A stretch of 64,000 nucleotides of DNA from Alphaproteobacteria bacterium (GTDB taxonomy: Bacteria > Pseudomonadota > Alphaproteobacteria > Rs-D84): NCBI GenBank assembly GCA_033345235.1, contig JAWPOC010000014.1:3872-67871 (forward strand), written 5' to 3'. The notes beneath the pieces are model-generated. The model was given only the letters and a program-made list of their open reading frames with translations, had not been told where the DNA came from and made no database searches. Of the stretch, positions 3,814 to 52,555 are shown one piece after another. Numbering within the stretch: position 1 is the stretch's first letter; each line of letters opens with the position of its first letter. The position numbers and the translations under genes are program-made.

Positions 3814-3898
<85 letters not shown>

Positions 3899-21383: not shown

Positions 21384-23924
21384 ATGAAAAAACTGCTGAC
21401 TTGTTTTTTTGCGATTGCACTTTGTGCGCCTGCTGCATTTGGCGCAGATGGTGCTGTATCCCGTATAATTCCATCAGATTCCGACAGGGCGACTGCCACG
21501 GCTAGTAAGCCTGCGGGGCGTACAAACGTCAATACATCGCGCGTAACAACATCGCGCAATTTACCAAGTACTGCATCGGAAATGAATAAAAGTGCAACTA
21601 ATGTACGCAGTACAGTTTCGCGTGTATTTTCTGGTGCGCCTGAAAAGCCGGTTGGGAATGTTGTTTCGCGTTCTGGGGTTTCTTCTCGTGCGACTTTATC
21701 CAGAACAAATCAGGAAACAGATGCGCTGGATGCAGCAGTACATACTGTTGGTCGTAACGCCAGGGTTTCCGCCGCCAGTATTAACAGCAATCCGGCTGTT
21801 CGTCGCGCGGGGGTGGTCTTGCGTCCCAGCACCGCAGAGGTGGGCGGTCGTGCGATAATTGCTGCCACTGGGGAACAAACAGGTTCAAATATTGATGAGT
21901 CAATTCGCAAGGTTCGCGGGCGCGCCGCGACAATTACAGCAGAAAGTATCGAAGAAACAAAAAATCGTTTGGAACAAAGTGCTGCGTTAAACAAGACTTG
22001 TCAGGATCAGTATAATGAATGTATGGATCAGTTTTGTGCGGTAATTGACGCCAATCAAAAGCGTTGTTCATGTTCTGCAAACTTGAAACAATACGCCAAG
22101 GTAGAAGAAGCGGTAAAAAGTGCAAATACTCAGTTAAATGAAATCGCCCAACGTATACGTTATGTTGGATTGTCTGCGGATGAAATCACCGCCATTATGA
22201 CCGAGACAGAGGCCGAAGAAGCTTTGTCTGGCACAACAGATACGTCAGAAACTCGTTCAATGTTGGATGAAATCGAAGATTTAATTCGTGACCCAAAAAC
22301 AACGACCAGTTCGTATACATCATCTAATTCATCGTTTGGTGGTATCAGTTTAGATTTAGATTTTTCTGGCGACAGTGCTGATATATTCAGTTTAGATTTC
22401 TTGAACAACGACAGCGCCAGCAGTTTTTCAAACCTGCGCGGAACGGATTTGTATAACGCGGCAAAAAAGCGCTGTGCCAGTGTTTTAAATCAATGTAAAG
22501 AAATCGGTGCTACATCTGCACAAATCACTGGTAATTATGACTTGGCAATTGACAAAGATTGTATCGCATATGAACAAGGCTTGGTCAAGATGAATGACAC
22601 GTTAAAGTCTAATGTTCGCAGTGCAAATATGATGTTGCAAAAGGCGCGCTTGGCGGTTTTGCAGAATAAAAATCAATATGATGCCAAGGGATGTATTTCT
22701 GCACTGAATACATGTATGACAGATGATATGGTATGCGGTTCTGATTACTTTAAATGTATTGACCCGACCAAGCGTTATATCGATGAGAATGGCGAAGTGG
22801 TCTTGGGGCAAGATATTTCTAAAATAACTGCGTTTATGGAAAATTATAATAATGCATCAATTAATACCGACTTCTTGACCAGTGCAAAAAATATGGAAAT
22901 AAATGCACAGGATTGCAGTTCAGATGCCACAATTAATCAAGATGTCGGAAATGATGGTCGCTGTGTTGCAAGTTATTTGTTGCAAAAAATTGGTACTGGT
23001 CAAAAGTTAACAGATGGTGGTTTATGTCGTGCGGTATTAGATAAATGTCAGGTCTTTACCTATGACAGCGAAGGTAATTACAAACCATATAATGACATTG
23101 TTGTGAATTATATTCAGCGTGCGATGGTAAATATTCGCGCGGCGCAACAACAGATAATTTCAGACTATGCATCCAGTTGTATGGTTGATATTGCAAATTG
23201 TTATAACCAACAGGTCAGTCAGCTAAATTCTTGGTCATCCAGCAACAGTGTTAATGGCATTTATAATGTAATGCGTGGCGCGTGCCGTAATGTGGCATTG
23301 ACATGCGCATATGCGGTGTTTGATGGCGATGAAGATGTGTGCACGAATCAAGATGCTAAAGAAAAGTGCGCAAATGAATATATCTCAGCGATTTCAGAAA
23401 TCTTTTATCAGTCAATGTTGTGTGACGATGGCGAAGTGTTTAATCCAACTTTGGGTGTATGCACCAAAGATGCGCTGGTTTATGATTTGAATGGTATTGC
23501 AAAATGGAAGTATACAAATGTTAAAACAGAACAGGTTGCCCAAGGTGTAGAAGTGCCGTTGATAAGTGATTTTGCAAACCAGTTAACGTTTAATGAAAAG
23601 TACGAAGAAGTCGACAATGCTAACTATTATTACTGGTGTTATGATTTGGGAACGGGGTTGCAATGTACGTCTGCAAATAGTGCTAAGATTAAAGTAACAA
23701 AAACATTCTTGGATAATGGCGGAACTGTTTATCTGTCTGTCAAAGATAGCAGTGATAGTTGTTCTGCAACCGGTGGGTATTCTTGGAACGAGAACAAGGG
23801 ATGTACATGCGCAAGCGGTTATAAGTTTGGATCTGGTGGCTGTGTTCCTGAAACGCCAACAGGGACAGAAAATCAGGGCGAAGGAACCGCAGCGACTGAC
23901 GAACCTACTGAACAGTCAGAATAA
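21384..23924 (+). CDS. Large secreted Cys-rich protein (846 aa), paralog of 27075..30368
   Basis: Signal peptide ...APAAFGA, then a Ser/Thr/Arg-rich low-complexity region, then repeated C-x3-[YLI]-x2-C motifs (CQDQYNECMDQFC, CISALNTCMTDDMVC, CRAVLDKC, CMVDIANC, CRNVALTC). C-terminal GCTCASGYKFGSGGC fits the EGF-like pattern. Extended -10 TGTGATATAAT upstream. Confidence 0.75.
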   Translation: MKKLLTCFFAIALCAPAAFGADGAVSRIIPSDSDRATATASKPAGRTNVNTSRVTTSRNLPSTASEMNKSATNVRSTVSRVFSGAPEKPVGNVVSRSGVSSRATLSRTNQETDALDAAVHTVGRNARVSAASINSNPAVRRAGVVLRPSTAEVGGRAIIAATGEQTGSNIDESIRKVRGRAATITAESIEETKNRLEQSAALNKTCQDQYNECMDQFCAVIDANQKRCSCSANLKQYAKVEEAVKSANTQLNEIAQRIRYVGLSADEITAIMTETEAEEALSGTTDTSETRSMLDEIEDLIRDPKTTTSSYTSSNSSFGGISLDLDFSGDSADIFSLDFLNNDSASSFSNLRGTDLYNAAKKRCASVLNQCKEIGATSAQITGNYDLAIDKDCIAYEQGLVKMNDTLKSNVRSANMMLQKARLAVLQNKNQYDAKGCISALNTCMTDDMVCGSDYFKCIDPTKRYIDENGEVVLGQDISKITAFMENYNNASINTDFLTSAKNMEINAQDCSSDATINQDVGNDGRCVASYLLQKIGTGQKLTDGGLCRAVLDKCQVFTYDSEGNYKPYNDIVVNYIQRAMVNIRAAQQQIISDYASSCMVDIANCYNQQVSQLNSWSSSNSVNGIYNVMRGACRNVALTCAYAVFDGDEDVCTNQDAKEKCANEYISAISEIFYQSMLCDDGEVFNPTLGVCTKDALVYDLNGIAKWKYTNVKTEQVAQGVEVPLISDFANQLTFNEKYEEVDNANYYYWCYDLGTGLQCTSANSAKIKVTKTFLDNGGTVYLSVKDSSDSCSATGGYSWNENKGCTCASGYKFGSGGCVPETPTGTENQGEGTAATDEPTEQSE

Positions 23925-27074: not shown

Positions 27075-30000
27075 ATGACATTTTTCAAAAACACAATAAG
27101 TTTATTGGCAATATTTAGTATAATTCCAACGGCGCATGCGGCGGCGGCTGCGCGTCCCAGCATAATGAATGCGTTTAATACCGCGTCTGCTGCGTCGCGT
27201 CGTATGCCATCTGCGCGCACATCACCTGTTACGCCGGTTGCGAATAATACAACGTCATCCACAGGGATTTTAGACGAAATCGAATGTATCGACGCGTACA
27301 CAGAATGTATTGCATCTGATGATACGTGCGGTTCTGATTTCGAAGAATGTACAACAAATGTTTTATTCCATGCTCAAATGCCAAAGTGTACCAGTACACT
27401 GTTGCAATGTACATCTGCGGGTATAAACCGTCTGTTCGGAACGACTGATGTTGCGTCATTGTCAAACGTTGATAGTTATGTTGCAGACACCCAGGATGCA
27501 GAGGTTGCACGCTACACTTTTCCATCTGACGGCAGTGTTATGGGTCAGCGTATAATCGCCGGTGCGATTGCGAACACATACGATACCCAGTCATGTGTTA
27601 AAAATTATATGCGTTGCTTGAACAAAGATGATGTTTGTGGCGCAGACTTTGAATTGTGTACAGACGATAAAGATTTTAAAAAGCAGGCATTGTATTGTGA
27701 ATCAACATTGGCACGTTGCCAAACCGAAGGTTTAAAAGAATTGTTTGGTGATTCTGGACGTGCGGCCAAGGGTTCTCCTGCGGTGGGGTCTCGTATCAAA
27801 GCGGCGATAACCAGTGGTGCAGAATTGGCGGCATTGAATGCAGTAACAACTTGCTATAAAACTGCTGATAACTGCTTGTTAAGTGTATGTAAACAAAATC
27901 CATTGCGCTGTATCGAAGGGACGTCTGTTGATTTGTTGCAGGCTGCGAACAAAATCAATGCAGACGGTACAGAAGATTCTGCTGTGTTAAATGATCAGGG
28001 TACAGTTACATCAGATGTGACCAAGTCAAATATTAATCGTTTCTTGCGTTCCAGTTGTGAAGATAAAATTGGTTCGAACAAATATTGTCATATGACAGTG
28101 TTCGAAAAAACACCAACCAAGAAAGACTTGGCAAATATTGACAAGATAAGTGAAGTCTTTGAAGATATTTTAGATTCACGCAAAGGTATTGTTTTGTCCC
28201 AAGTTCAAGGTTTGGCTCAGAAATTTGATTCTAATGCCAAGGCTGCATGTACAAAAACAATCCAAGAATGTGCAATGCGCACATGCGGTGGCGGTTCTGG
28301 TGCTGCCTGTTGGACTCAGGTTTATGGTGACAATGGTACAAAATCCATTGGCAAGGATACACCGTACTCTGATATTGAAACAGGTTGTGCGGCGATTGTA
28401 AACACAGATCCAAATTGTGTTTATGCAGCGCAAAGTGTATCCAGCACTGCTACGACATATAATTATGATTATATCGATGGCAATGCATTCTCGTCATTGT
28501 TTGGTGCCAGTGACCCAATTGGTGCTGTTGCGTCATTAAATTCATTGCTGGCGACCAGTTATAACGCCGCCGCTATTGAAAATATGGGTAAACAGTGTCA
28601 GAAATTGGCAACCAGTTGTGTTCGTTCAATGTGTGGCAATGATTTTGTAAATTGCTATCGCAATCGTACAGATATTTATTCTAATTTGACTGATACAAGT
28701 AACATCGGCTTTGATAAGTCTATGAACAAAGTTGGCGGTGTTTTGGATTATACAATTGTATTGGGATTATGTGCCGATACAGTTAGAAACGCAGATACGT
28801 GTAGTGAACACTTGAAAATCGCCAAGGCATCAATTAATACAGACGCAACAGCAGACACTTGGGGTAGCCCAGATAAATCTGTAAGTGAAAATTGGCGTGC
28901 TTCGGGCCAAGGGTTATTATCATTTAAAGCAAATGGAAAGGATTCTGTTCAGAAAGAAAACGAAAATGGTGAATTGCTATGCAAAAATTCCAAAGGCGAA
29001 GAAGGGGTTTGTGATACATGTTCCGGCGGCACAGATAGTTGTGATTTATACAACATAGCTGTGATGCAATCAGTTGACGCGTACAAGAATTCATATGCAG
29101 TTACTTCATTGTTCAAAGAATTGATTGCTGATTTAGAAATCGAGGCTCAGGCAAAGTATAACGCAAAGTTGACCAAGCAACAGAATATGTGTTTGGCAGC
29201 AAACGCGGGCGGTATTATGGGCGGTAATGATATGAGCTCTATATACAAATGGGTAAAACTTGGAAATGGTGGCAGGGTGCCAAATGACTATTCTATCCAA
29301 GGCCTAAAGACCAGTCAATTCAAAGCCAGTAACGATTTGTATGGTTCGTTCTGTGCGGTGCGTGTAACATTGCAATCTGACGACCCAGATATTATGGCCG
29401 CATTAAGTGGTAACTATGCGGGTCAGACATTTAAAAGACTGGGTACAGGAAACCACGAATTGAGAGCGGATACTAACTTAGATGTTGATTTAAGTGGTTC
29501 GGCCAGTCGTTACTTTGCAATCGGCGACCCAATTACATGTGGTTCATGGTTGTCAATGACCGAAATCGAGAAATTGGCACAAGTTGTCGAAGCCAAGGCA
29601 AAATCTGCCAAGGAAAAAACACAAAACACCAGCCTGCGTACATGGATGCCAATCTTGGGCGCAGCGGGTGGTGCGCTTGGTGGTGCGTTCTTGGGCGACG
29701 CAATCCAAGACGGTTCTGCATTAAGTGGATTGTTAGACAAACCAAAAGTAAAAAGCAAGGATTCTACAAAATCTAGTTGTCAACAGTGGTCTGATAAATT
29801 TGCTTCTACATATGATGTTTATTATGCAAACAAAATTATAGAAATGGCACGAAAAGCAGATGAAAACAATGCAAAAGCGACACGTGCAGAGACCCTGATT
29901 GAATATATTGATGATCCTGAGGATACCGAAGCAACATGGATGGCAGTGTTTAATAAAACTACAGCCCCTGGTGCTAAAACGACTTGTTATGATGGATCTA

Positions 30001-30368
30001 CATATGACAGTGATTGTTTACAAAAAGAGGCAAGATCAAAGGCCAAAACAGAAATTCGTAACTTGATTTCTGTTTGTGAAAGAGGTCAAGAACAATATTG
30101 TAAAGACAATTCTACTGCAGAAGAATGTAAAGAGAAAACTTGGTGGCAGAGAGATGGCGGAACATTGGTTGGTTCTTTGGTTACAGGTGCTGCTACTGCT
30201 GGGTTGGCCTATGCGGTTACAGACAGTGTCCTGAATGCAGAACTGGACAAGGCTGGTCAAGAAGCATATCAGGCATTTATGGACAGCATTGGTTCAAAAA
30301 TCCATTGCTATATCGGCAGCCAAGAAGTCGCCACATACGGCCAGGTAATCGAAACCAGTATGGAATAA
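27075..30368 (+). CDS. Very large secreted Cys-rich protein (1097 aa) with C-terminal Gly-zipper segments
   Basis: Signal peptide ...IIPTAHA. Ser/Thr/Arg-rich linker. Repeated C-x3-Y-x2-C modules (CIDAYTECIASDDTCGSDFEEC, CVKNYMRCLNKDDVCGADFELC, CYKTADNCLLSVC, CTKTIQECAMRTC, CQKLATSCVRSMC). C-terminal ILGAAGGALGGAFLG and LVGSLVTGAATAGLAYA. Confidence 0.75.
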   Translation: MTFFKNTISLLAIFSIIPTAHAAAAARPSIMNAFNTASAASRRMPSARTSPVTPVANNTTSSTGILDEIECIDAYTECIASDDTCGSDFEECTTNVLFHAQMPKCTSTLLQCTSAGINRLFGTTDVASLSNVDSYVADTQDAEVARYTFPSDGSVMGQRIIAGAIANTYDTQSCVKNYMRCLNKDDVCGADFELCTDDKDFKKQALYCESTLARCQTEGLKELFGDSGRAAKGSPAVGSRIKAAITSGAELAALNAVTTCYKTADNCLLSVCKQNPLRCIEGTSVDLLQAANKINADGTEDSAVLNDQGTVTSDVTKSNINRFLRSSCEDKIGSNKYCHMTVFEKTPTKKDLANIDKISEVFEDILDSRKGIVLSQVQGLAQKFDSNAKAACTKTIQECAMRTCGGGSGAACWTQVYGDNGTKSIGKDTPYSDIETGCAAIVNTDPNCVYAAQSVSSTATTYNYDYIDGNAFSSLFGASDPIGAVASLNSLLATSYNAAAIENMGKQCQKLATSCVRSMCGNDFVNCYRNRTDIYSNLTDTSNIGFDKSMNKVGGVLDYTIVLGLCADTVRNADTCSEHLKIAKASINTDATADTWGSPDKSVSENWRASGQGLLSFKANGKDSVQKENENGELLCKNSKGEEGVCDTCSGGTDSCDLYNIAVMQSVDAYKNSYAVTSLFKELIADLEIEAQAKYNAKLTKQQNMCLAANAGGIMGGNDMSSIYKWVKLGNGGRVPNDYSIQGLKTSQFKASNDLYGSFCAVRVTLQSDDPDIMAALSGNYAGQTFKRLGTGNHELRADTNLDVDLSGSASRYFAIGDPITCGSWLSMTEIEKLAQVVEAKAKSAKEKTQNTSLRTWMPILGAAGGALGGAFLGDAIQDGSALSGLLDKPKVKSKDSTKSSCQQWSDKFASTYDVYYANKIIEMARKADENNAKATRAETLIEYIDDPEDTEATWMAVFNKTTAPGAKTTCYDGSTYDSDCLQKEARSKAKTEIRNLISVCERGQEQYCKDNSTAEECKEKTWWQRDGGTLVGSLVTGAATAGLAYAVTDSVLNAELDKAGQEAYQAFMDSIGSKIHCYIGSQEVATYGQVIETSME

Positions 30369-31800: not shown

Positions 31801-32013
31801 TTAGAAATTAAATCCGGCAAATTTGCTCTTGAATTCGGCGGCACGTTGACCCTTGTCGCCCGCGTTAGAGCGTTGGCCAGTCCATGCAGAATGGTTCAAG
31901 TTATCTGTTGATAAAATCAAGTCTTTCTTTACAGAAGAGTACATCTGAACAGTTGTGCCATCTGTTCTTGTAACGTTGATTTCATGGTATTCTGGATGAA
32001 TTCCTTGTTTCAT
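31801..32013 (-). CDS. rpmE: 50S ribosomal protein L31
   Basis: MKQGIHPEYHEINVTRTDGTTVQMYSS...; canonical L31 N-terminus. No CxxC zinc motif is visible. Confidence 0.93.
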   Translation of the reverse strand: MKQGIHPEYHEINVTRTDGTTVQMYSSVKKDLILSTDNLNHSAWTGQRSNAGDKGQRAAEFKSKFAGFNF

Positions 32014-32089: not shown

Positions 32090-32599
32090 TTAATATCGAC
32101 CAATGCAACCCAAATAGGAATTGCCCGTCGATTCCAAGATATTTATAAACTGACTTTGACTTTTTCCGGAAAATAACGCCAATATCGTCCCTGCGTCCGT
32201 CGCCAACATATCTGCAACTGTCGCAATGGACGAGTTCATCTTTTTGAAAAAGCCACTGGTCGGATAAATCTCGGCCGCCAACAGTTGGTTTTTACCGTCT
32301 TTTTTCGCGGTCTTTTTGGATTCTATGACCATTAACTGGCATTCAGATGATATTATCAGCTTGTCCGACACAAATGCATCGCCACCTAATAATTCGCCCC
32401 ACCAGCCCGTCGAACCACAAAATACAGGATAATAAATAACAGCGTCTGGATTTTTAGCCAGTACGTCTGTGATGTCAATGTCATCAGTGCATACGTCCGG
32501 CATAACCCCAGTCGAATTATTTATAACTTTACGCGCCAACTGGTAATCTGAATCCCCAGTTGTCTTGTGTGGCCAGTAAAGAATCGGAAACCTTGTCAT
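32090..32599 (-). CDS. Hypothetical protein (169 aa)
   Basis: ORF downstream of and co-oriented with 32668..33984. Own TGATATAAT-like -10 at about 32607-32615 (minus). No homology recognised. Confidence 0.5.
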   Translation of the reverse strand: MTRFPILYWPHKTTGDSDYQLARKVINNSTGVMPDVCTDDIDITDVLAKNPDAVIYYPVFCGSTGWWGELLGGDAFVSDKLIISSECQLMVIESKKTAKKDGKNQLLAAEIYPTSGFFKKMNSSIATVADMLATDAGTILALFSGKSQSQFINILESTGNSYLGCIGRY

Positions 32600-32667: not shown

Positions 32668-33984
32668 TTATTTTTTTAAAGATTCGTACCATTTCTTGCC
32701 ATCTTCCCATAATTTGTTTAGGTCTTTTTTCGCACTGTCATAATATTCAGTTGATACAGTAACATTGAATATCGTCTTGATTAAAGCAGGAATTGCCGTC
32801 ATAAACATCGCCATAAAGATACCCATCAATATCATTGTTATCAATGTGTCATCGCGCAGCATTATCGAATCCATCAGCATCTGTGCGCCTTGCGAATCGC
32901 TGGCGTTAAGTGCCGCAGCCAATGTGTTTGCACCCATCCAGTCGCCAAATATCGCATTTAAAAACATTATCGCAAATGATACAAATACCGCAGTTAGTGC
33001 AATCCCCAACGTCGCAGATATAACATTATCAATAATACTGCGAATCGATTTGCCAGCACTATCCAGTGATATCGCCCAGCCTTTGAACAACCACGCCAGC
33101 AACATTAATGGCAACATAACAAAATCCAAAGACAGTTTTATAAAGACCTCTAAGAAATACAGCGGAATCGGTATTAATGCGACGAAAAATAGCACAAACA
33201 CCGCCAGACCTAAAAAGAATATCGGTACGTTCGGAAATATCGGAATCGATTGCAGAATTGTGTGCATATATTCTTTGTTAAAAGACATACTTAACATCGT
33301 CCAGCCAACTGTCATCCCCAGACCTGTCATTTGATGCACACCCGCCAATTCGCAAGCCAAGTTATGACGCAGTCTTGGTGAAAATGCCCCGCGATTCGCG
33401 GCGTTTTCGTCAATAGATACAGGGTCTGCAATCGCAGTTGCAATAACACAGGTGTCAAACTGGTCATCATGAACGGCGATTCGATTTAATGCCATACCAA
33501 CGTTAAATATAGGCTCTATCGCGACGTTCGATATCATACGTGGTAACGGCATTATCAATATCGCACAAATAAAAACAAGCTTTACAATATGAACACCAAA
33601 CGTTCCGGCGATATCCCAAGGCTTTTCGATGTTCGAATTAAAAAATCCAGACATTAATCGCCATGCCAGCCATATCGCAGTCAGCATTAATGCCAACGGA
33701 ACAACAACATGACCAATCGCACTGTATATTCGTGGCAAAATATTAGACATCGTAGACATTATGTCAGAAAATAACTGACACGACCAACAACTGGAAAAAA
33801 ACTTGTACGCGTCCGCCATATTAACCGGCGCAAAGCTGCGATAAATCGAAAATCCAGCCAGTGTGCCTAAGCCTGCCAGTACACCAATTACCAGTGGTGG
33901 CAACGCAGCCGCACTAAATGGCAGCAATGCTAAAAAAGCAATCCAAAATTTTTTTAACCGATTCATTGCTTTTAAGTATATCAT
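32668..33984 (-). CDS. Polytopic membrane protein, paralog 1 of 5 (tentatively TrbL/VirB6-like)
   Basis: 438 aa, with an N-terminal signal-like segment (an alternative start at MNRLKK, 33966, is possible). CWSCQLFSD motif. At least 6 hydrophobic segments. Lys/Trp-rich amphipathic tail KKDLNKLWEDGKKWYESLKK. Shares W....(K/R)..I...........P........EP blocks with the four downstream paralogs. Confidence 0.6.
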   Translation of the reverse strand: MIYLKAMNRLKKFWIAFLALLPFSAAALPPLVIGVLAGLGTLAGFSIYRSFAPVNMADAYKFFSSCWSCQLFSDIMSTMSNILPRIYSAIGHVVVPLALMLTAIWLAWRLMSGFFNSNIEKPWDIAGTFGVHIVKLVFICAILIMPLPRMISNVAIEPIFNVGMALNRIAVHDDQFDTCVIATAIADPVSIDENAANRGAFSPRLRHNLACELAGVHQMTGLGMTVGWTMLSMSFNKEYMHTILQSIPIFPNVPIFFLGLAVFVLFFVALIPIPLYFLEVFIKLSLDFVMLPLMLLAWLFKGWAISLDSAGKSIRSIIDNVISATLGIALTAVFVSFAIMFLNAIFGDWMGANTLAAALNASDSQGAQMLMDSIMLRDDTLITMILMGIFMAMFMTAIPALIKTIFNVTVSTEYYDSAKKDLNKLWEDGKKWYESLKK

Positions 33985-34032
33985 ATTTTGTCTTAAATGT
34001 GATATAATTGAAAAAAGATTTGTTCAGAGAGA

Positions 34033-35262
34033 ATGTTTTTAGGTAAAAAAATCTTTGGTTGTTTGCTGTTTTTTGCGATGTTTTTATCGCCATCTTTTGC
34101 GTATGCAGCAGACTTGGTTGATGCCTTGGATTTAACCCCATTTGTGCCATTGGTATTGGATGCGTTGATGTTGGTTGCCACAGGTGTATATGAATATTTC
34201 GTTGGAAATGGGACTGGGATTATATATGGACTGATATGGACTTTTGTTGCGATAACAATTGCGTTGTATTTGGTAAAGATGTATTTGCCAAAATCATGGG
34301 TATCTTTCTTAGGGTTTTCTGGTGGTGGTGAAATCGCCGATGGTATCAGTGGCACAAAAGTTATGGAAAATGTATTAAAGCCCGGACTGCGTGCGGTTAT
34401 TGCAATGGTTGCGTTGTTGCAGATAAAGCCTGTTTATGTAACAGATTGGTTGGTTACACCTTTCTTGGATTTAGGGGCGATTTATTCGACCGAAATTGTA
34501 GAGTCAATAAATGATTCGGATGTGACAGATTATTCCTGTTCTGGCAAGTTTTCTGATAATATATGGCTGTCTGAAAGGGCATGCAGTGCGCTGGTTCAGC
34601 CTGTGTCTGCATTAACACAGGAAAATAACAAAGTTATTAAAACAGGAATTAAATTTATAACCAATGGATTGCGTGGGTTATTGACGCTGATACCATCTGG
34701 TGGGGAAAACTTTTTAAATGTTCTGACGGGGTTGTTTTTAGTGTGTACGTTCTTTTCGTGTAACTTTTTTATGGCGCTGTTAATTATCCAAGGAATATTT
34801 AATTTTGGTGTACAGTTAATTTTATATCCGTTTAATGTCTTGGCGTACGTTGCAAAGCCCAGTGATAAATGGTTTGATATTTGGCCGGCGTTCAGTGGCT
34901 TAACCAAGGCGATACAGCAATTAATCATAACGATGATTGCGTGTTCTTTTATTCTGTGCATAAATATCGCAGTTATTAAGGCAATGTTTCAATGGAATAC
35001 ATCTGTATTTGTTGTGGCGACAGGTGGTGTGGCGACGACTAATTTGCCGCAGGTTGCAAATTCTTCGATGGGCTTTGGTCAGCATTCAATATTATGGTTG
35101 TCCGCAGGATTAACTTTCTTTTTGATGTTCAAGATATTTGAAATGACACGTAAACAACTGGAAATGTATGTGGGCAAAGGTATGGATGGATTGTATAAAG
35201 ATACAAAATCTAATGCGTCAAAGTACTGGAAAAAAATAACAGGTGCGCTGGGTAAAAAATGA
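34033..35262 (+). CDS. Polytopic membrane protein, paralog 2 of 5 (tentatively TrbL/VirB6-like)
   Basis: 409 aa. Signal peptide ...SPSFAYA. Multiple TM segments. Tail NASKYWKKITGALGKK. Extended -10 TGTGATATAAT at 34004-34014. Confidence 0.6.
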   Translation: MFLGKKIFGCLLFFAMFLSPSFAYAADLVDALDLTPFVPLVLDALMLVATGVYEYFVGNGTGIIYGLIWTFVAITIALYLVKMYLPKSWVSFLGFSGGGEIADGISGTKVMENVLKPGLRAVIAMVALLQIKPVYVTDWLVTPFLDLGAIYSTEIVESINDSDVTDYSCSGKFSDNIWLSERACSALVQPVSALTQENNKVIKTGIKFITNGLRGLLTLIPSGGENFLNVLTGLFLVCTFFSCNFFMALLIIQGIFNFGVQLILYPFNVLAYVAKPSDKWFDIWPAFSGLTKAIQQLIITMIACSFILCINIAVIKAMFQWNTSVFVVATGGVATTNLPQVANSSMGFGQHSILWLSAGLTFFLMFKIFEMTRKQLEMYVGKGMDGLYKDTKSNASKYWKKITGALGKK

Positions 35263-36485
35263 ACGGATGGCTGAACTCTTTAATAGAAGGCGGTGTACAG
35301 TGTTGGGGCTGTGTGGTTTTTGACAGCGCATTTCGGACGATATCTGTTGTAATCGGTAACATATATGAAAAGTTCAGTGATATATGTGTAATATTGTTTT
35401 GTTTGCTGTTTACAGTCTTTGTTATTAATGCCATTTATAAAAATATGAAATCCGGAATGTCTGATCCTTGGATGACCAAATCGGTACAAAAAGTTGTTAT
35501 TTCTGGGTTGATTGTTTTAACGATTATGGGTACAGGAATCGCGTTCCCCAGATTTTTAACAACGGTATTATTTGAACCTGTGGCAGATATCACAATGCTG
35601 TATTCACAAAGTATGATAAAGCTGGATGAAGAACAGGTTGCAGAACGTGTAACATATGAACCAATCGAAGTACCATCAGACAGTGTCTTTCGACCACAGT
35701 TGCGTGATAAAATAATCGGTGTGATGAAAACAACAGTAACGCAATTCCAAGGTTATATAAAGCTGGGGTTAGCGATTATGGATCATGCGTTTTCATGGCA
35801 GTCTTTGCATTATGGTATGGGTGGAATTATAAAATATTTTATAATGTTTTTTGTGGGAATGTCTATTGCATGGAACTTTATCAAGATATTCTTTAGGTAT
35901 TGTTGTTATTTCGTAGACATAATTATTTCATTGGCGTTCTTTGGTGTTTTCTTTCCTTTGTCACTGGTTGCGTTTGCCTTTAAGGGCGCGGAACATGTGC
36001 CAGAATGGATTTCCAAACTGGGCGGTTCGTTGGGGGTTGGTCAGATAAAAAATGTGATAAATTCGATTGTGACATTGGGGTCTGTGATTATAACGTACAC
36101 GATAATTATGGTGATGATAACAAAGTTCTTTACGGCATCTGGAACAGATCTTAATGAATTAATGGTTTATGTGACAACAGGGCAAGTTTTTGCGGACGTA
36201 TTGAATTCAGAAACATTACAATCTATGACTTTAATTGGTTGTGCTGTTTTGATGTTTGTATTAAATTACATAATGGATCAAATTCCACAAGTATCTAAAA
36301 TGATACTCAGTGCATTTGGTGTCCAAGAAAAATCAGATGCCAGTGAAGATTTTGCAAACTCTGTATCGAAATTTATCGATAAAAGAATAGAAAATGGCAA
36401 AGATTTTATAAAGAAAATCAAGGGTGATTCTGCAGATGGCGCGTCAGGCGGCACAACATCAGGCGGCACAACAGGTGGGGCATAA
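35259..36485 (+). CDS. Polytopic membrane protein, paralog 3 of 5
   Basis: 408 aa. ATGA overlap with paralog 2. CWGCVVFDS motif. DPWMTKSVQKVVISGLIVL...FEPVADI block. Gly/Thr-rich C-terminal tail. Confidence 0.6.
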   Translation: MNGWLNSLIEGGVQCWGCVVFDSAFRTISVVIGNIYEKFSDICVILFCLLFTVFVINAIYKNMKSGMSDPWMTKSVQKVVISGLIVLTIMGTGIAFPRFLTTVLFEPVADITMLYSQSMIKLDEEQVAERVTYEPIEVPSDSVFRPQLRDKIIGVMKTTVTQFQGYIKLGLAIMDHAFSWQSLHYGMGGIIKYFIMFFVGMSIAWNFIKIFFRYCCYFVDIIISLAFFGVFFPLSLVAFAFKGAEHVPEWISKLGGSLGVGQIKNVINSIVTLGSVIITYTIIMVMITKFFTASGTDLNELMVYVTTGQVFADVLNSETLQSMTLIGCAVLMFVLNYIMDQIPQVSKMILSAFGVQEKSDASEDFANSVSKFIDKRIENGKDFIKKIKGDSADGASGGTTSGGTTGGA

Positions 36486-37915
36486 TGTTCAAAGTAAAAT
36501 TAATTATGTTTTTACTTAAATTTGTGATGTGGGGCACTTTGTTGGGGCTGGGGGTTTGGTATTTGTCATCTGCGCTGGGGGGGGGGGCATTAACATACAC
36601 CAGTGTCGATAGATTTTTAATTGCCACAGGTGTTGAAAATGGCGATATATCGGATGTAAATGGTTGTTTTATGTGCGGTTATGTCGCAGATTTATTTAGC
36701 GTGCTTGGGGATGCGACTCAGCGTTTTTGGTCGGCAATGCTGGATTCAATATGGATTATAATGGTTGTGGGGTTTGGTGTGTTTTTGGCTATATACAGTG
36801 TTCAATATGTATTAGAGGCAACGAAAAAAACCGCCGAGACAGATACCAAAGAAAAAAAATTGGAATTCAAAGGCTGGTTTGACAAAGTTTGGAAACAAGG
36901 TCTGCGTATATTAATTGCAGGGACTTTTATTGGTGCGATTGGTATGGGCGGGACAGACGCATTAAAGACGGTTACAAATATAACTATAACACCTGTGATG
37001 TATCTGGGGGCAGAATTTTCAATGGCGGCCAGTGGTGTGTCTGATGCGTCGAAATGTTATGCATTAGAACGAACGTCTAACGAATCTACTGATTTATTAA
37101 ATCCGATATTACAGCCATTTATGTGCGTGATTGGAAATATTAACGCAGTGATGTTAGCGGGCGCTGCGGGCGGTTTTGCAATGATGAATTATGCGTGGAT
37201 GGGTATGGGTGGTGGCGCAGTGACATGGATTGCGGGGTTGCTGTTGGTTATAATGTTTTTGATTATTGGATTTGATTTATTCTTTCAAATATTAACAGTC
37301 GTATTTAAATTGATATTTGTAATAATCTTTTTGCCACTTATTATTGCAGCGGCAGCATTTGAACAAACGTGGAAGGTCGCCAATGGTTTGTTATCAAATT
37401 CTATTAATATGTTAGTGTCTTCGGCAGTACGTATTATTGCGATAACGTTAAAGGTTTTGATTATATTTGGAACTGTGTCATATGCGGCAGATACTTTCTT
37501 TCCGGAACCATATGATGGATACAGTGCGGTATTGCCACCGTTGCTGGGGCATAAACCGACAAATCCAGATGCGCAAACAATGTCTGTTATGAATGTGTTT
37601 TCGACATGTGAAAGTGTGTCATTGGTTGATGATGTGGTTGATAAAGATTTATTCAAAGAATGCTTTATGGAACAAAAAGCGATTGTTGAAAGACAATATC
37701 CACATGCGTTTGATTTCTTGAAAAATGGTTGGGATTTCTTGTTGTTGATGGCGTGTACATTCTTGCTGTATTTTTATATCATCAGTCCAAAGGTAGACAA
37801 GATTTTGGGTAAAGACCCCAAGGAAGAATTTGATTTCGGTGGCGAAATTAAAAAACTGGGAAAGTTGGCGTGGAATTTGCCAATTAAATTGACCAAGGGA
37901 TTGTTGAACAAATGA
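36485..37915 (+). CDS. Polytopic membrane protein, paralog 4 of 5 (contains a G11 tract)
   Basis: 476 aa. TAATG overlap with paralog 3. CFMCGYVADLFS motif. KGWFDKVWKQGLRILIAG...ITPVMYLG block. Confidence 0.6.
   Translation: MFKVKLIMFLLKFVMWGTLLGLGVWYLSSALGGGALTYTSVDRFLIATGVENGDISDVNGCFMCGYVADLFSVLGDATQRFWSAMLDSIWIIMVVGFGVFLAIYSVQYVLEATKKTAETDTKEKKLEFKGWFDKVWKQGLRILIAGTFIGAIGMGGTDALKTVTNITITPVMYLGAEFSMAASGVSDASKCYALERTSNESTDLLNPILQPFMCVIGNINAVMLAGAAGGFAMMNYAWMGMGGGAVTWIAGLLLVIMFLIIGFDLFFQILTVVFKLIFVIIFLPLIIAAAAFEQTWKVANGLLSNSINMLVSSAVRIIAITLKVLIIFGTVSYAADTFFPEPYDGYSAVLPPLLGHKPTNPDAQTMSVMNVFSTCESVSLVDDVVDKDLFKECFMEQKAIVERQYPHAFDFLKNGWDFLLLMACTFLLYFYIISPKVDKILGKDPKEEFDFGGEIKKLGKLAWNLPIKLTKGLLNK
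36577..36587 (+). repeat. Homopolymeric G11 tract inside paralog 4 (codons 31-34, LGGGA)
   Basis: GCGCTGGGGGGGGGGGCATT: eleven consecutive G in an AT-rich genome. I noticed no other G or C run of 8 or more in the window. Confidence 0.9.
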
Positions 37916-39222
37916 TGACCAGATTATGTAAATTTTTATCTCGATTGATGGTCGCAGTATTTTTACTGAGCGGATTTACAGTGCCTGCACATTCATTTAC
38001 AACAAATGTCCCAGATGAATTTGGTATGGCGGATGTTGGTGATTATGGTTCGTGGGCCACAGAAAATAATCGCAGGGCATTTTTATCCAGTCTGACATAT
38101 GATTTAGATGACTTCATAGGTTCCGCAACAGAACAACAACTGGTTGATGATTATGTGCCCATAGAGGCTAAGTTAGGTCTGGCGTTTATGAATGCATTTT
38201 CACATATTGGTCATGTGTTGGATCATTCGCTGGTACACTTTATTATTGTTTTTATTGTTATAATGTTTGGTCTGTGGGTTGCGTTCGAAGCGTATACGAT
38301 AATAATCGCGCAAAACAAAGTCCAAGATAAAGTAATAGAAATATTTAAACAAGGCCTGAAAGTTGTTGCATGGTCTGTGGCGTTGTCATATGGCTTGCCG
38401 AAATTGTTTGTGTTATTTGCAAATCCAATAATGTATGTCGGAACATTGATTTCTGATATTGTGTTGTCTGCAGCCAGTTCAATTGCAGATATCAGATTGC
38501 CAAATACATGTGGCGCAATACATCAATATGTGCAAACACATATCAGCAGTTCGAATATAATAGATGCCACCAGTGCCGCAAATTTAATGTGTGTGCCAAC
38601 GCGTATTGTTGGATTTTTACGTACTGTGGTCGCGTTGGGTTGGAAATGGATGCAGTATGGTATTGGTAACAGTATTATTATCTTTTTAGCTGGGGGTTGG
38701 TTGATATATTGCTTTATTCGTATTTCGTGGACTTTTGCGTTTGTAGTGTTCGGTGTTATTGCGGATTTATTCTTGGGTATAATAATGTTACCGTTTACAG
38801 CAGTCGCAGAAACCGTTGGCAAAACTTCGTACAAGGGTATCGCAGGCGATATGTTCAACGGCTTTACAAAATTATTTAATGCAGAAAACTTGAAAAAGCA
38901 GGTCGAGCGCGTTGTAAATGCCGCATTGCACTTCTTTAGTATGTCGATTATTGTCGCGGTATGTGTCGCATTGTTATCATTGGTGTATTCATTAGACCCG
39001 ACAAACTATACGCCAAATATGGAAAACCCCAGTTTTATAATTACTGCATTGGTCACAGCGCTGGTTGTATGGTTGGCAAAGAATGCATCTGCCAAGGCAA
39101 CAGAAATCGGTGGCAGTATCACAACCGATGTTGGCGATGAGTTAAAGTCAAATATCGATAAAATGTGGCAAGGGACGAAAAAACAATACAAAGATTTTAA
39201 AAGCGCTTTGAAAAAATCCTAA
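37912..39222 (+). CDS. Polytopic membrane protein, paralog 5 of 5
   Basis: 436 aa. ATGA overlap with paralog 4. Signal peptide ...FTVPAHS. VIEIFKQGLKVVAWSVAL...ANPIMYVG block. Tail KSNIDKMWQGTKKQYKDFKSALKKS. Confidence 0.6.
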   Translation: MMTRLCKFLSRLMVAVFLLSGFTVPAHSFTTNVPDEFGMADVGDYGSWATENNRRAFLSSLTYDLDDFIGSATEQQLVDDYVPIEAKLGLAFMNAFSHIGHVLDHSLVHFIIVFIVIMFGLWVAFEAYTIIIAQNKVQDKVIEIFKQGLKVVAWSVALSYGLPKLFVLFANPIMYVGTLISDIVLSAASSIADIRLPNTCGAIHQYVQTHISSSNIIDATSAANLMCVPTRIVGFLRTVVALGWKWMQYGIGNSIIIFLAGGWLIYCFIRISWTFAFVVFGVIADLFLGIIMLPFTAVAETVGKTSYKGIAGDMFNGFTKLFNAENLKKQVERVVNAALHFFSMSIIVAVCVALLSLVYSLDPTNYTPNMENPSFIITALVTALVVWLAKNASAKATEIGGSITTDVGDELKSNIDKMWQGTKKQYKDFKSALKKS

Positions 39223-44800: not shown

Positions 44801-46003
44801 ATGCGTTTAATAACAATATCTATGCTGTCGTTATGCATTGTTTTGCCTGCAGGTGCGAATGCTCGTCTGCCGGTTGTTAATATTGCGTCTGGTGGTGTTT
44901 CTGCACGTGCTGCGTTCGGTGCTCAGCAACCTGTGCAAACACAAAAAATCGCAAAAACAACTGCGCCAACACGTGTTAAAAAAGTTGTCGCACGCAGTGC
45001 CAAAGTCGCACCAGCTGCGCAACCAAAGGTTGCGGACAGTGTGTCTGTTGCGTCAAATGATGTTTTGATGCCGATGCGTCCCAGTGCAGATTTGTGGGCG
45101 AGAAATAATGATGTTGCATTGCGGATGCCGCGTTCTGATGAATTTTCTGTAATACGCAGTGATAATTTATTGCCCGAAGAAAATATCGATAGTCATATTG
45201 TTATGCAATCTGAACAGATTTCGCCAGATGCCGAAGTTGAAATGAAGTTGGCTGAATTGCAAAAACGTGCGAATGACAGTGTGCGTACTATCGCTGCACG
45301 TGATGCAGATATGCCTGTTTTGGCCAGTGCGGATAATACAGATATATCAGTTAAAAAGTTGATTGTCCCGATGGAGCAAGATTCGGATGTTGTAGTCAGA
45401 CGTGTTGAAAAAAATGTATCTCCACGTATTGCGTCTGTTCGTGATGATATGACCAAGATGTCTCCTGCGCAACTGCGTCAGGCGTTCAGAAAGACTTTCT
45501 TGTCTGAGAATAAGCATTTATCTACTTTCTCAATTGATGATAAATTTGATGTTGCCAGTGATATGACGTCTTCGACAGGTGATTTTGTTTCCAGACCTGA
45601 TTTGTCAGAACAGAATTCTGGAATTCGCACATTGGAAATAAAGATTAAATTCCGCGACGAAGATTCTTCGTTGTCACGTGCTAATTATACATTGCTGACA
45701 GAATATGCAGGTATTGTCGTCAATAAACCAACCCGCGCGGTACAGATTGCAATACCACAGTATATGACAATGGATGCTGATGAGCGTAAGTTAGCAGCGC
45801 GTCGTTTGGCGATTGTTGAACAGGTTTTAACAGATAACGGCGTGTCTAAACAACGTATTGTGCCGGTATTATCTCAACGCGAAGAACCAGGGTTTGTGTT
45901 GCGTATGATTTCCAGCGATCAATACGATACATTGACACAACAAAGCCGTAATATCTTTGGTGATACGGTCAGTAAAAAAACATATAAAAGTATGTCGTGG
46001 TAA
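44801..46003 (+). CDS. Secreted hypothetical protein (400 aa), possibly with a degenerate OmpA-like C-terminal domain
   Basis: Signal peptide MRLITISMLSLCIVLPAGANA. Ala/Val/Lys-rich linker. The C-terminal ...LAARRLAIVEQVLTDNGVSKQRIVP resembles the OmpA/MotB C-terminal helix (weak). Confidence 0.5.
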   Translation: MRLITISMLSLCIVLPAGANARLPVVNIASGGVSARAAFGAQQPVQTQKIAKTTAPTRVKKVVARSAKVAPAAQPKVADSVSVASNDVLMPMRPSADLWARNNDVALRMPRSDEFSVIRSDNLLPEENIDSHIVMQSEQISPDAEVEMKLAELQKRANDSVRTIAARDADMPVLASADNTDISVKKLIVPMEQDSDVVVRRVEKNVSPRIASVRDDMTKMSPAQLRQAFRKTFLSENKHLSTFSIDDKFDVASDMTSSTGDFVSRPDLSEQNSGIRTLEIKIKFRDEDSSLSRANYTLLTEYAGIVVNKPTRAVQIAIPQYMTMDADERKLAARRLAIVEQVLTDNGVSKQRIVPVLSQREEPGFVLRMISSDQYDTLTQQSRNIFGDTVSKKTYKSMSW

Positions 46004-50276: not shown

Positions 50277-51227
50277 ATGAAACCTTTTAGTAAAACAATG
50301 ATGTTGGGTGCGCTTTTGGTGCCGAATATCGCATTTTCTGCGTCGGATGGATTGACACAGGCGCTGCAAAGCGTACGACAAAACTGTGGCGGGATATCTG
50401 AATTGATGTCCGATTTAAAAACCAAAGCGGGAATTAATACCGCAATAACCGGCGCAGGTACTGTTGCAGGCGGCGTCGCGTTGGGAACAGGTATTGCCAA
50501 AGCGCAAAAAGATTCGAAAATAGATGAAATAGAACAGCAGTTGATGGATATGTTAGAACAGGCGTCTGCCACCGAAAATTTCGAAGCAGAAACTTTGTAT
50601 TTGGACATAGATGCGGTTACAGCTGCAATTGAAAAAGGGCAGGCGGACGAAGCTAAAAGAAAAGAGTTGATTTCAGAACTGAAAACTTTGACCGCAGAAT
50701 CTAAAAAGTTGGGCAATGTGCGTACAGGTACGATGGCGGCGGCAACTGTTACAAATATCGCGGGCGCTGCAATTGCAGGCACAAATAAAGTTGACGAAGA
50801 TTTATCTGCCAGAATTGGCGCGTGTGTCAGTTATGTAAAACGGTTGGCTGATGTTAAAATGCAGGCGCATATCGAAGGCAGTGCGACATCTGCAGAAATC
50901 GCACAGGTGGACAAAATTATTTCTGCGTGTGATAAATGGTCGACGGTTGATTTAAGTCCAATTAACAAACGTGCAACAGGTGCGGCCGTATCCAGCGGTA
51001 TTGGCGCAGGCTTTGGTTTGATTGGAACAATCACCAGTGCCAGTGCGAACAGTGATAAAGTTCGCAGTGGTGATGCCAAACAAGAAAAGAACTTGAATAC
51101 GGTATCGAATGTTATGGCCGGCACAACGGCTGCGGCCAGTTTAACGTCGACTATATTTAACGCGACCCAGATTTCTGCAATTAAACACGCGGCAACTGTT
51201 GCCGACGAATGCCAAGGAGCACTGTAA
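50277..51227 (+). CDS. Secreted protein with about 4 coiled-coil/glycine-zipper modules (316 aa)
   Basis: ATG 50277 gives the signal peptide MKPFSKTMMLGALLVPNIAFSA with a GGGGGG SD; the track start 50265 lies inside the SD. Modules include NCGGISELMSDLKTKAGINTAITGAGTVAGGVALGTGIAKAQKD, GNVRTGTMAAATVTNIAGAAIAGTNK and NKRATGAAVSSGIGAGFGLIGTI. Confidence 0.7.
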   Translation: MKPFSKTMMLGALLVPNIAFSASDGLTQALQSVRQNCGGISELMSDLKTKAGINTAITGAGTVAGGVALGTGIAKAQKDSKIDEIEQQLMDMLEQASATENFEAETLYLDIDAVTAAIEKGQADEAKRKELISELKTLTAESKKLGNVRTGTMAAATVTNIAGAAIAGTNKVDEDLSARIGACVSYVKRLADVKMQAHIEGSATSAEIAQVDKIISACDKWSTVDLSPINKRATGAAVSSGIGAGFGLIGTITSASANSDKVRSGDAKQEKNLNTVSNVMAGTTAAASLTSTIFNATQISAIKHAATVADECQGAL

Positions 51228-52555
51228 TGAAAAGAATTTATTTATCTAGTTTGTTAGCGATAATTGCGCTGACGTCAAATGTGTTTGCAGCCAATATAGT
51301 TGGCAAGCAACAAATTAGTCGCAAAGCAGTTTTAAAAACCATAGAAACATATAAGTCAATGCCCGCACCACATTCGTGGAATTTAGTTGGTGATGTCTTT
51401 TATAAAACAAAAGCCGGTTTTTTACAGTGTATAAATAATTATACGAAAATAACAACAACGGATTTTGCATATTGTTGTGGAATATCTGGACTGGGGGCCA
51501 GTGCCGCAGAATGTGTTGATTTAGTAAAAATGGCCGTTGATATTCATAATGATATGGTGCGGTCTTATATCAAGACAGCGGGTCTTGGGAATGTGTGCAG
51601 TGCCGAAGATTTAAAGACAGTTCCAAATGCTGTTGCGGGCAGATATTCTATGATAAACGGTGTTTATAAGTGTGTTGCAACAGAATGTAAAACAGGTTAT
51701 TACTTAAAGAAAAACGCCAAAGGCGAATCCCAAGGATGGTGCGCATATGGTACAGATCCATATGTTCCATTTCGACCAGATGTTGAAATGCCACAGTCGC
51801 AGGTTACATTGTTGAATGTTGAACCGTTACAGGCAGAGCCAATAAATATACAATTGAATACAACTGTTTTGGCAGATGATCCAGAGTTTGCGCAACAGCT
51901 AGAAGATATTCAAAAGAAAGCGGATGCAGAAAAAGTGGCATTGGTGCGCCAAGCGTTGGCAGATCAATCTAAAGAGCAGGAAATTCAATTGCGTGAACAA
52001 GGCAAACAATTGCTGGCGACACAAAAAGAAGAATTAAAACAAGAGAAAAAAATAAATCGACTAGAAACGCAACAAGCTAAGCTGCAAAAAAAGGTTGATG
52101 CAAACAAGCAAGAACAAGAACTGCAGAAACAATGCGACGAATTAAAACTGAGTAAGGCAGATTGTACAAAGTACAAGAAAAATCCAGACGCCTTTTTGGA
52201 AGAAAGGGAAAAGGAACAAGAATGTGAAAGAATGGGGTTAAATAAAACAGAGTGTGCAAAATACCATAAAGATCCAGATGCGTACCTAGCAGAGGTTGCA
52301 AAAGAAGCAATGTGCAAGGAGTTAAATTTAAATGCTGTTGAATTTAACAAATGTAAAAAAGATCCTGTTGCATATAAAATTGAATGGAATGAAAGAGAAA
52401 TTGCAAAAGAAGAGGCGGAAAAATTAAAGAAAGATAAAAAGAAAGCCAAGGCCGATAAAAAAGCAGAGGCTGCTGCGCTGGGGTTGACTGTTGCTGAATA
52501 TGAACGTTACTTGAAAAACGAAGCGACGTTAAAACAGTTAAAAGAAGGGCAGTAA
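51227..52555 (+). CDS. Secreted protein: N-terminal Cys domain plus Lys/Glu-rich region with three ~31-aa Cys-pair repeats (442 aa)
   Basis: TAATG overlap with the upstream gene. Signal peptide MKRIYLSSLLAIIALTSNVFA. CVATECKTGYYLKKNAKGESQGWC. Repeats CDELKLSKADCTKYKKNPDAFL, CERMGLNKTECAKYHKDPDAYL and CKELNLNAVEFNKCKKDPVAY. Confidence 0.7.
   Translation: MKRIYLSSLLAIIALTSNVFAANIVGKQQISRKAVLKTIETYKSMPAPHSWNLVGDVFYKTKAGFLQCINNYTKITTTDFAYCCGISGLGASAAECVDLVKMAVDIHNDMVRSYIKTAGLGNVCSAEDLKTVPNAVAGRYSMINGVYKCVATECKTGYYLKKNAKGESQGWCAYGTDPYVPFRPDVEMPQSQVTLLNVEPLQAEPINIQLNTTVLADDPEFAQQLEDIQKKADAEKVALVRQALADQSKEQEIQLREQGKQLLATQKEELKQEKKINRLETQQAKLQKKVDANKQEQELQKQCDELKLSKADCTKYKKNPDAFLEEREKEQECERMGLNKTECAKYHKDPDAYLAEVAKEAMCKELNLNAVEFNKCKKDPVAYKIEWNEREIAKEEAEKLKKDKKKAKADKKAEAAALGLTVAEYERYLKNEATLKQLKEGQ

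Follow-up and report, generated by a model that had tools for sequence, protein, structure and literature searches.

Five tandem membrane proteins of an Rs-D84 alphaproteobacterium are placed by sequence and predicted fold in a divergent branch of the VirB6/TrbL superfamily

The 64,000-nt stretch of DNA analysed here (the window; positions 3,872 to 67,871 of contig JAWPOC010000014.1, assembly GCA_033345235.1, an alphaproteobacterium of the Rs-D84 lineage) contains five paralogous genes, labelled A to E, whose products are, judged from sequence and predicted structure, a divergent branch of the VirB6/TrbL superfamily that the current Pfam model does not capture. Proteins of the VirB6/TrbL type span the inner membrane several times and make up the base on which the type IV secretion stalk stands. 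The placement was made because sequences intermediate between the two groups, the fold match of A, and a loop motif that is exact in D agree with one another. The A-E subfamily was unannotated before; multi-copy VirB6 is already known, so that the five genes are not a categorically new system. The genes are located as follows, with lengths in amino acids (aa).

32668-33984, minus strand: paralog A, 438 aa as called by open reading frame (ORF), probable true start Met7 at 33966; predicted VirB6/TrbL-superfamily polytopic membrane protein, divergent from B-E
34033-35262, plus strand: paralog B, 409 aa, at the head of the B-C-D-E operon; most divergent member, without CxxC
35259-36485, plus strand: paralog C, 408 aa, without an N-terminal signal sequence; CWGC almost at the start, Gly/Ser/Thr-rich C-terminal tail
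36485-37915, plus strand: paralog D, 476 aa; of the five the most canonical as a VirB6-like protein, P-x7-F-x2-T exact
37912-39222, plus strand: paralog E, 436 aa, closing the operon; without CxxC, with C the fastest evolving

All five products have at least five hydrophobic helices; several 19-residue segments in each are strongly hydrophobic, and the C-terminal tail is rich in Lys. The genes B to E are translationally coupled through overlaps of ATGA (B/C), TAATG (C/D), and ATGA (D/E). An earlier note on this DNA, made from the letters alone, had described five ORFs of 408-476 aa at these coordinates, their helices and tails, the coupling of four of them, a C-[WF]-x-C motif in three, and the absence of other type IV secretion system (T4SS) genes nearby, and all of these held on re-examination. 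Its proposal that the genes are a multiplied VirB6/TrbL like that of the Rickettsiales rvh system found remote support in intermediate sequences, the fold of A, and in part the loop motif, and failed on direct matching to Pfam, as set out below.

A search of 1.84 billion representative sequences with a profile of A and C yielded 424 clusters, of which 118 reached E ≤ 1e-10. Among the distant full-length proteins found with this profile, 32 of 73 matched Pfam PF04610 (TrbL) at E ≤ 0.01 (best 1.2e-8), and in the two that were checked (P0216 and P0246) the TrbL match scored 29 bits, above the gathering cut-off of 25.9, and lay inside the region aligned to the profile. Two of the window proteins, D (4.8e-9) and A (2.5e-8), were matched directly by a TrbL-positive protein of locus L017 (6428-7804), and one match, from the cultured Rhodovibrio sodomensis, is named TrbL/VirB6 in UniRef. 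The 868 homologs of A are all 'hypothetical' and carry no Pfam domain.

The structural comparison, which the earlier note had proposed, was made for A among the five paralogs, and the model matched VirB6 chains specifically. An AlphaFold (AF2) model computed from the deep alignment A3 reached a predicted local distance difference test score (pLDDT) of 85.3 and a predicted template modelling score (pTM) of 0.77; a shallow alignment of 16 sequences gave an unusable model with a pLDDT of 42. Foldseek comparison of the A model with PDB returned the TrwI/VirB6 chains of the R388 T4SS stalk (8rtd_L, 8rt9_F, and 7o3v_F/J/G) with a probability of 1.00 and a target-normalised template modelling score (TM) of 0.46-0.53 over about 340 columns at about 13% identity, against a TM of about 0.1 for unrelated matches.

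The third line of evidence is the motif P-x7-F-x2-T-x6-W, listed as a VirB6 loop motif for rvh proteins (PMC10732058). Its equivalents in the five proteins are encoded at the following positions.

37334-37369, plus strand: VirB6-type loop motif of D, PLIIAAAAFEQT, an exact P-x7-F-x2-T
33076-33111, minus strand: aligned equivalent in A
34828-34863, plus strand: aligned equivalent in B
35955-35990, plus strand: aligned equivalent in C
38791-38826, plus strand: aligned equivalent in E

In E the loop reads PFTAVAETVGKT, which is P-x7-V-x2-T; A, B, and C keep P-x7-[F/V] and not the Thr, and the distal Trp is not evident. The proline of this motif is the one invariant proline of the superfamily in the 42-sequence alignment A3. 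A second signature lies nearer the N-terminus of three of the proteins.

33769-33789, minus strand: CWSCQLF motif of A, the CxxC plus F signature
35301-35321, plus strand: CWGCVVF motif of C, equivalent of the A motif
36665-36700, plus strand: CFMCGYVADLFS motif of D (CFMC), equivalent of the A motif

Three of the five thus have CxxC, as CWSC in A, CWGC in C, and CFMC in D; B and E lack it. Across the superfamily alignments of 73 and of 42 sequences, conservation of either cysteine is 90% or higher; the two belong to an added CWxC..F signature and may form disulfides or bind metal. At the other end of the molecule, A-type orthologs of 510-714 aa from other lineages (P0121, P0123, P0127, and P0129) have long Gly/Ser linkers that lead into unrelated domains at the C-terminus, and other relatives carry a C-terminal M23 peptidase. 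The Gly/Ser/Thr-rich tail of window protein C is of a similar kind. As it is there that relatives attach such variable domains, the C-terminus looks like a variable, exposed functional arm or module. Fusion of A with the gene of 169 aa downstream of it was considered as the origin of the longer A-like proteins and was ruled out, their extensions being unrelated variable domains.

The relationship among the five genes themselves was less easily established. Pairwise sequence search linked only two pairs, A with C (E = 1e-17) and D with E (E = 8e-7), and thin profiles left B unlinked to the other four. HHalign comparison was then based on strictly orthologous alignments of eight sequences each (from the window, L001-L004, L284, L290, and L309), with no sequence common to two sets. 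The probabilities were 98.9% for A-C, 96.9% for B-E, 96.9% for C-D, 95.4% for A-E, 93.9% for D-E, 92.2% for A-D, 89.8% for B-C, 88.6% for C-E, 68.5% for A-B, and 57.7% for B-D, i.e. 88.6-98.9% in eight of ten pairs, and all pairs were collinear over 200-350 columns. Reversed-sequence controls gave 0.3-17%, and the common architecture that the earlier note had ascribed to all five is borne out by the range of 57.7-98.9% against these controls. In the set retrieved independently by the A/C profile, phmmer matched B to P0177 (gene 1 of locus L008) at 1e-9, D to P0237 at 7e-15, and E to P0152 at 1e-6. Mutual identity among the five paralogs is 13-26%. On these comparisons A to E are mutually homologous but distinct, and their shared architecture is not due to chance.

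The closest genomes are those of Candidatus Enterousia and of alphaproteobacterial metagenome-assembled genomes (MAGs) from animal guts. Enterousia belongs to the order Rs-D84; its genomes are mostly <1 Mb and lack respiration and standard transporters, and Rs-D84/Enterousia are predicted to be obligate symbionts or parasites (PMC12306168). The unit E-D-C-B / A, followed by the 169-aa gene, rpmE, and the gene for inositol monophosphatase (IMPase), was invariant in every Enterousia-like contig examined, and the outer flanks differ. Against two orthologous loci, the ratio of nonsynonymous to synonymous substitution rates (dN/dS) was 0.10-0.22 for A-E (0.10-0.14 for A and about 0.2 for E) and 0.03-0.09 for housekeeping neighbours; the synonymous rate was near saturation and these values are approximate. 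Outside this group, L309, a termite-gut MAG labelled 'Rickettsiales bacterium', carries five co-directional genes in the order A-B-C-D-E that are one-to-one orthologs of the window genes (A 5e-80, B 5e-50, C 5e-60, D 2e-46, and E 2e-32), and some intermediate A-type orthologs likewise carry the NCBI label '[Rickettsiales bacterium]'. In L008, the order is an A-like gene, an unassigned gene, a C-like gene, and a D-like gene; the fifth gene, equally weak against A, B, C, and E, is unassigned as well. D-type orthologs were matched in L008 at 1e-21, in L010 at 5e-20, and in L309 at 2e-46. Other uncultured Alphaproteobacteria possess arrays of 3-4 larger members (L005, L010, L012, L014, L016, and L017). 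The one-to-one orthologs in fixed order in L309, and partly in L008, thus indicate that the duplication is old and the subunits are non-redundant, and the set is kept, by its sequence record, as a unit under purifying selection. 'Tandem amplification', the term used in the earlier note, is therefore misleading: these are five ancient orthologous groups in a fixed order, not recent copies. The inversion of A is probably a rearrangement on the Enterousia side, as read from two outgroups only.

T4SS genes were found near such arrays in relatives. The relatives termed RF32-like here are gut Alphaproteobacteria including 'Azospirillum sp. 51_20', CAG:495, and Ca. Scatocola. In L017 and 30 of the 80 RF32-like loci listed, a distance of 6-7 kb separates the array from an operon made up of virB8, virB9, a gene of 1138 aa, virB10, and virB11, in which virB10 encodes about 1470 aa, with TrbI at 1.8e-34 and beta-flower repeats. 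A further 64 gut/rumen species have an operon that runs from a VirB8-like gene through a gene of 58 aa, VirB8, VirB9/CagX, and a VirB10 of some 2100 aa to VirB11; it is chromosomal and in some species adjoins dnaK-dnaJ. Since an array was located within 10 kb of the operon in just 1 of the 64, scattering is normal in the gut/rumen clade.

These loci yielded some observations of their own. The chromosomal rvh-like operon was seen in >140 species-level loci (L020-L099 and L220-L283; also L300-L305, e.g. L302 176-10990), with a giant VirB10 of 1470-2400 aa combining beta-flower repeats and TrbI, and with VirB11 56-100% identical across loci. No literature was found on this gut/rumen operon or on T4SS in Rs-D84 or RF32. 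Two of the loci, L022 (JAISVX01, 'Lactobacillaceae bacterium') and L047 (CAVBCV01, 'Lachnospiraceae bacterium'), carry, on a 392-kb and a 125-kb contig, an alphaproteobacterial VirB11 with 87-89% identity, and their bins are probably mislabelled or mis-binned. The RF32-like arrays are followed by a conserved operon (L017 13162-18916 and L021 11507-17504; also L005, L014, and L016) that encodes a protein of about 325 aa with two HTH_3 domains and four Pfam-less proteins of about 520-810, 170-340, 415-455, and 180-310 aa. The RF32 partner genes (HTH327, Y750, Y186, Y425, Y215, the 1138-aa protein, and VirB8-11) have no counterpart in the window. In the last gene of the RF32-like array, the VirB6-like domain is fused to Peptidase_M23, a peptidoglycan hydrolase domain (L016 8310-12305, L017 10001-13000, and L013 731-4609), and this fusion may take the role of VirB1.

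We consider it the best reading, and a reasonably probable one, that A to E together form a VirB6 platform, hetero-oligomeric and perhaps pentameric, for a dispersed rvh-like T4SS in a partner-dependent bacterium. VirB6 is a pentamer at the stalk base in the inner membrane, where it carries the stalk and is the proposed base of pilus assembly (PMC9259494). The five products would assemble into one hetero-oligomeric inner-membrane platform, in the most economical version a 1:1:1:1:1 hetero-pentamer replacing the VirB6 homo-pentamer of the R388 machine. The fixed set of five paralogs, taken with the pentameric state of VirB6, leads to the testable hypothesis that one copy of each is present in the hetero-pentameric stalk base. 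Such a platform would serve a chromosomally dispersed rvh-like T4SS and thereby macromolecule exchange with another cell. CxxC and other conserved cysteines would stabilise or regulate its periplasm-facing part, and the amphipathic C-terminal helix, rich in Lys and Trp, would rest on the membrane surface. The earlier note had offered the cluster as either a dispersed T4SS island or an undescribed membrane-protein family; a divergent, unannotated VirB6/TrbL subfamily is what emerged, and a dispersed T4SS in Enterousia is plausible by analogy with the relatives.

A number of results weigh against this reading. VirB4, B8, B9, B10, B11, and D4 were not found in the window, where Pfam was applied to the larger ORFs and phmmer/hidden Markov model (HMM) searches with VirB4/8/9/10/11/D4 references to all ORFs of at least 90 aa. 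VirB4, B8-B11, and D4 were likewise not found in about 20 Enterousia-like loci (L001-L004 and L284-L299), the Enterousia sequence searched amounting to about 10-15% of a genome of <1 Mb. No Enterousia title occurs among the about 208 VirB11-positive loci listed from profile, DNA-pattern, and divergent-query scans, of which the profile scan gave at least 80 loci, all RF32-like, and the divergent queries 64, the DNA pattern being codon-biased. The published Rs-D84 genome analysis mentions no secretion system. Arrays outside Enterousia often have three or four members and not always five; the hetero-pentamer is purely inferred, and nothing combining VirB6 with a hetero-pentamer was found in the searchable literature.

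The absences suggest an alternative that we regard as possible but rather unlikely, in which the five proteins form an autonomous VirB6-derived complex, the rest of the T4SS having been lost or never present. It would be a self-sufficient inner-membrane conduit or scaffold without VirB4/VirB11 ATPases, used for uptake of nutrients or macromolecules or for cell-cell contact with a partner. Besides the lack of any T4SS gene in the Enterousia sequences examined and of any Enterousia title among the VirB11 loci listed, this explanation can draw on the array standing alone in a housekeeping context in L309 and L008, on the compactness of the five proteins, which lack the large extensions of RvhB6 (PMC10732058), and on an organism without standard transporters (PMC12306168). 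It is set back by the small fraction of the genome covered, by the VirB8-11 encoded in related array-bearing lineages, and by the scattering of T4SS genes that is the rule in the gut/rumen clade. To our knowledge, VirB6-family proteins are known only as parts of T4SS, which also counts against it. The boldest form of this alternative, which we put forward as doubtful, is that Enterousia, L309, and L008 lack VirB4 and VirB8-11 altogether and that the five paralogs are a free-standing hetero-pentameric conduit, an exapted T4SS stalk base, for exchange with a partner cell.

Counter-evidence of another kind comes from the direct comparisons. A to E had no match at E ≤ 1 in Pfam, including TrbL (PF04610), and nothing relevant in NCBIfam; the five family consensus sequences had no match to Pfam TrbL at E ≤ 1; and neither A, D, nor the 42-sequence superfamily profile matched any PDB sequence. 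The superfamily consensus matched Pfam TrbL on the correct region, with a non-significant E of 0.35 (11 bits), a single canonical VirB6 compared with the superfamily by HHalign reached just 6.7%, and the Foldseek matches of A were marginal in E-value (3e-3 to 3e-2) with a modest root-mean-square deviation of about 10 Å. The earlier note had held that lack of a TrbL profile match, together with lack of other T4SS genes in the genome, would refute the T4SS interpretation; the first of these was found for all five proteins. It might be supposed, then, that A to E are a novel polytopic membrane family, e.g. a transporter, unrelated to VirB6, and that the TrbL matches and the fold are artefacts of hydrophobic composition, to which transmembrane proteins are prone. 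We consider this very improbable: the intermediates match TrbL down to 1e-8, with the two checked passing the curated threshold over the same collinear region, a TM of about 0.5 was reached by VirB6 chains only and not by other helical membrane proteins (about 0.1), reversed-sequence controls were negative, the P-x7-F-x2-T motif in common with VirB6, exact in D, is specific and non-hydrophobic, and members lie near virB8-11 in RF32-like genomes. That the array is the remnant of an integrated conjugative element or plasmid, of which TrbL/VirB6 genes are typical, with its other transfer genes decayed, is scarcely credible given the chromosomal locus beside rpmE and mrcA-mraY-ftsW-murG, the lack of any integrase, relaxase, or repeats noticed around it, a guanine-plus-cytosine (GC) content similar to the surroundings, the one-to-one orthologs from Enterousia to the termite-gut MAG, and purifying selection.

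The remaining features of the cluster and its surroundings are as follows.

33985-34032: spacer between the divergent genes A and B, 48 bp as called and 66 bp with Met7 as the start of A; presumably holds promoters for both directions
32090-32599, minus strand: 169-aa ORF directly downstream of A, soluble and highly conserved, possibly co-transcribed with A
31801-32013, minus strand: rpmE, flanking the cluster

The start of A was revised from its relatives. Met7 is the start in all orthologs and distant hits, and the first six codons as called (33966-33984, minus strand) are probably not translated. The gap between A and B, given as 48 bp in the earlier note, is that long when counted from the first ATG and, since orthologs and distant relatives all begin at Met7, is probably 66 bp. 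A scan of the A-B region for promoter and terminator consensus sequences was uninformative, with fewer matches than in shuffles. The 169-aa protein had no Pfam or NCBIfam match; it is 81-90% identical among Enterousia species, with a dN/dS of 0.03-0.08. Its gene keeps its place between A and rpmE-IMPase in Enterousia-like contigs and does not adjoin the array in L309, and its association with the VirB6-like system is uncertain.

The location of the cluster between rpmE and mrcA-mraY-ftsW-murG, as first described, was verified, and its neighbours in the window are housekeeping genes: an rRNA operon, uvrD, an RNase T-like exonuclease gene, the inositol monophosphatase gene, and rpmE, and further mrcA (class A penicillin-binding protein), mraY, ftsW, murG, leuS, and gyrA. 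No sixth member of the A-E family was found among the window ORFs. Elsewhere in the window, four large ORFs with a signal peptide and without a Pfam match were seen on the plus strand (21384-23924, 27075-30368, 44801-46003, and 51209-52555). Three of them are very rich in cysteine, with 32 Cys in 846 aa, 44 Cys in 1097 aa, and 14 Cys in 448 aa, and the 1097-aa protein contains a repeated C..Y..C(5-9)CG.DF..C module and evolves fast (dN/dS 0.25). These large ORFs could encode surface proteins or secreted substrates.

The placement of A to E addresses an annotation gap, as these proteins are only 'hypothetical' in hundreds of gut/rumen MAGs and invisible to Pfam. The VirB6-like identity marks a likely cell-to-cell transfer apparatus in Rs-D84/Enterousia, a group whose dependence on a partner has so far been inferred from missing metabolism, with no interaction machinery named. 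A 2025 preprint on the rvh system of Wolbachia calls the purpose of multi-copy virB6 and of the other duplications 'a mystery', and the Enterousia proteins, lacking the insertions of RvhB6, would be much simpler to model or express than those of Rickettsiales. The presence or absence of the rest of the T4SS in Enterousia could raise the importance of the feature: if that rest is truly absent, this would be a T4SS-independent use of the VirB6 scaffold, the first that we know of.

Among known systems, tandem RvhB6 arrays occur in Rickettsia, Wolbachia, Ehrlichia, and Orientia, and the Rickettsiales rvh system resembles the one described here in having tandem, diverged VirB6-like genes in a host-dependent alphaproteobacterium with a reduced genome. 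The rvhB6 genes of Rickettsia adjoin virB3-virB4, and the Enterousia array does not. Scattered chromosomal clusters of the rvh type include duplicated VirB8, VirB9, and VirB4 besides VirB10, VirB11, and VirD4. A to E also differ from RvhB6 in carrying the CWxC motif (A and C; CFMC in D) and in not being recognised by Pfam TrbL. The rvh systems have 3-5 tandem virB6 genes, with T4SS genes scattered on the chromosome, and RvhB6 has large insertions flanking the VirB6 region that are missing from the 408-476 aa of A to E (PMC10732058). In relatives of other lineages, with members of 600-1330 aa, the large extensions are present. The gut/rumen clade, whose RF32-like subset has arrays of this family, further resembles rvh in its duplicated VirB8 followed by VirB9-B10-B11 and in the scattering of these genes.

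A canonical T4SS normally has one VirB6 copy. With the canonical VirB6/TrbL (TrwI of R388; PDB 7O3V/8RT9/8RTD), the proteins share a polytopic helical build, a TM of about 0.5 for the A model, and the proline loop motif. The canonical protein is a homo-pentamer (PMC9259494) and its gene lies inside a complete virB operon (e.g. L019), whereas the Enterousia array consists of five distinct paralogs with no neighbouring virB genes, at about 13% identity and with no direct profile match. The RF32-like arrays, of which no description was found in the searchable literature, are of the same superfamily, have the CWxC motif, and are tandem, translationally coupled, and chromosomal like the Enterousia array. 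They differ from it in their 3 or 4 members, which measure 450-1330 aa, in the fusion of the last member to an M23 peptidase, and in being accompanied by the helix-turn-helix (HTH) gene and its four-gene operon, with virB8-11 at 6-7 kb, partners of which there is none near the Enterousia array.

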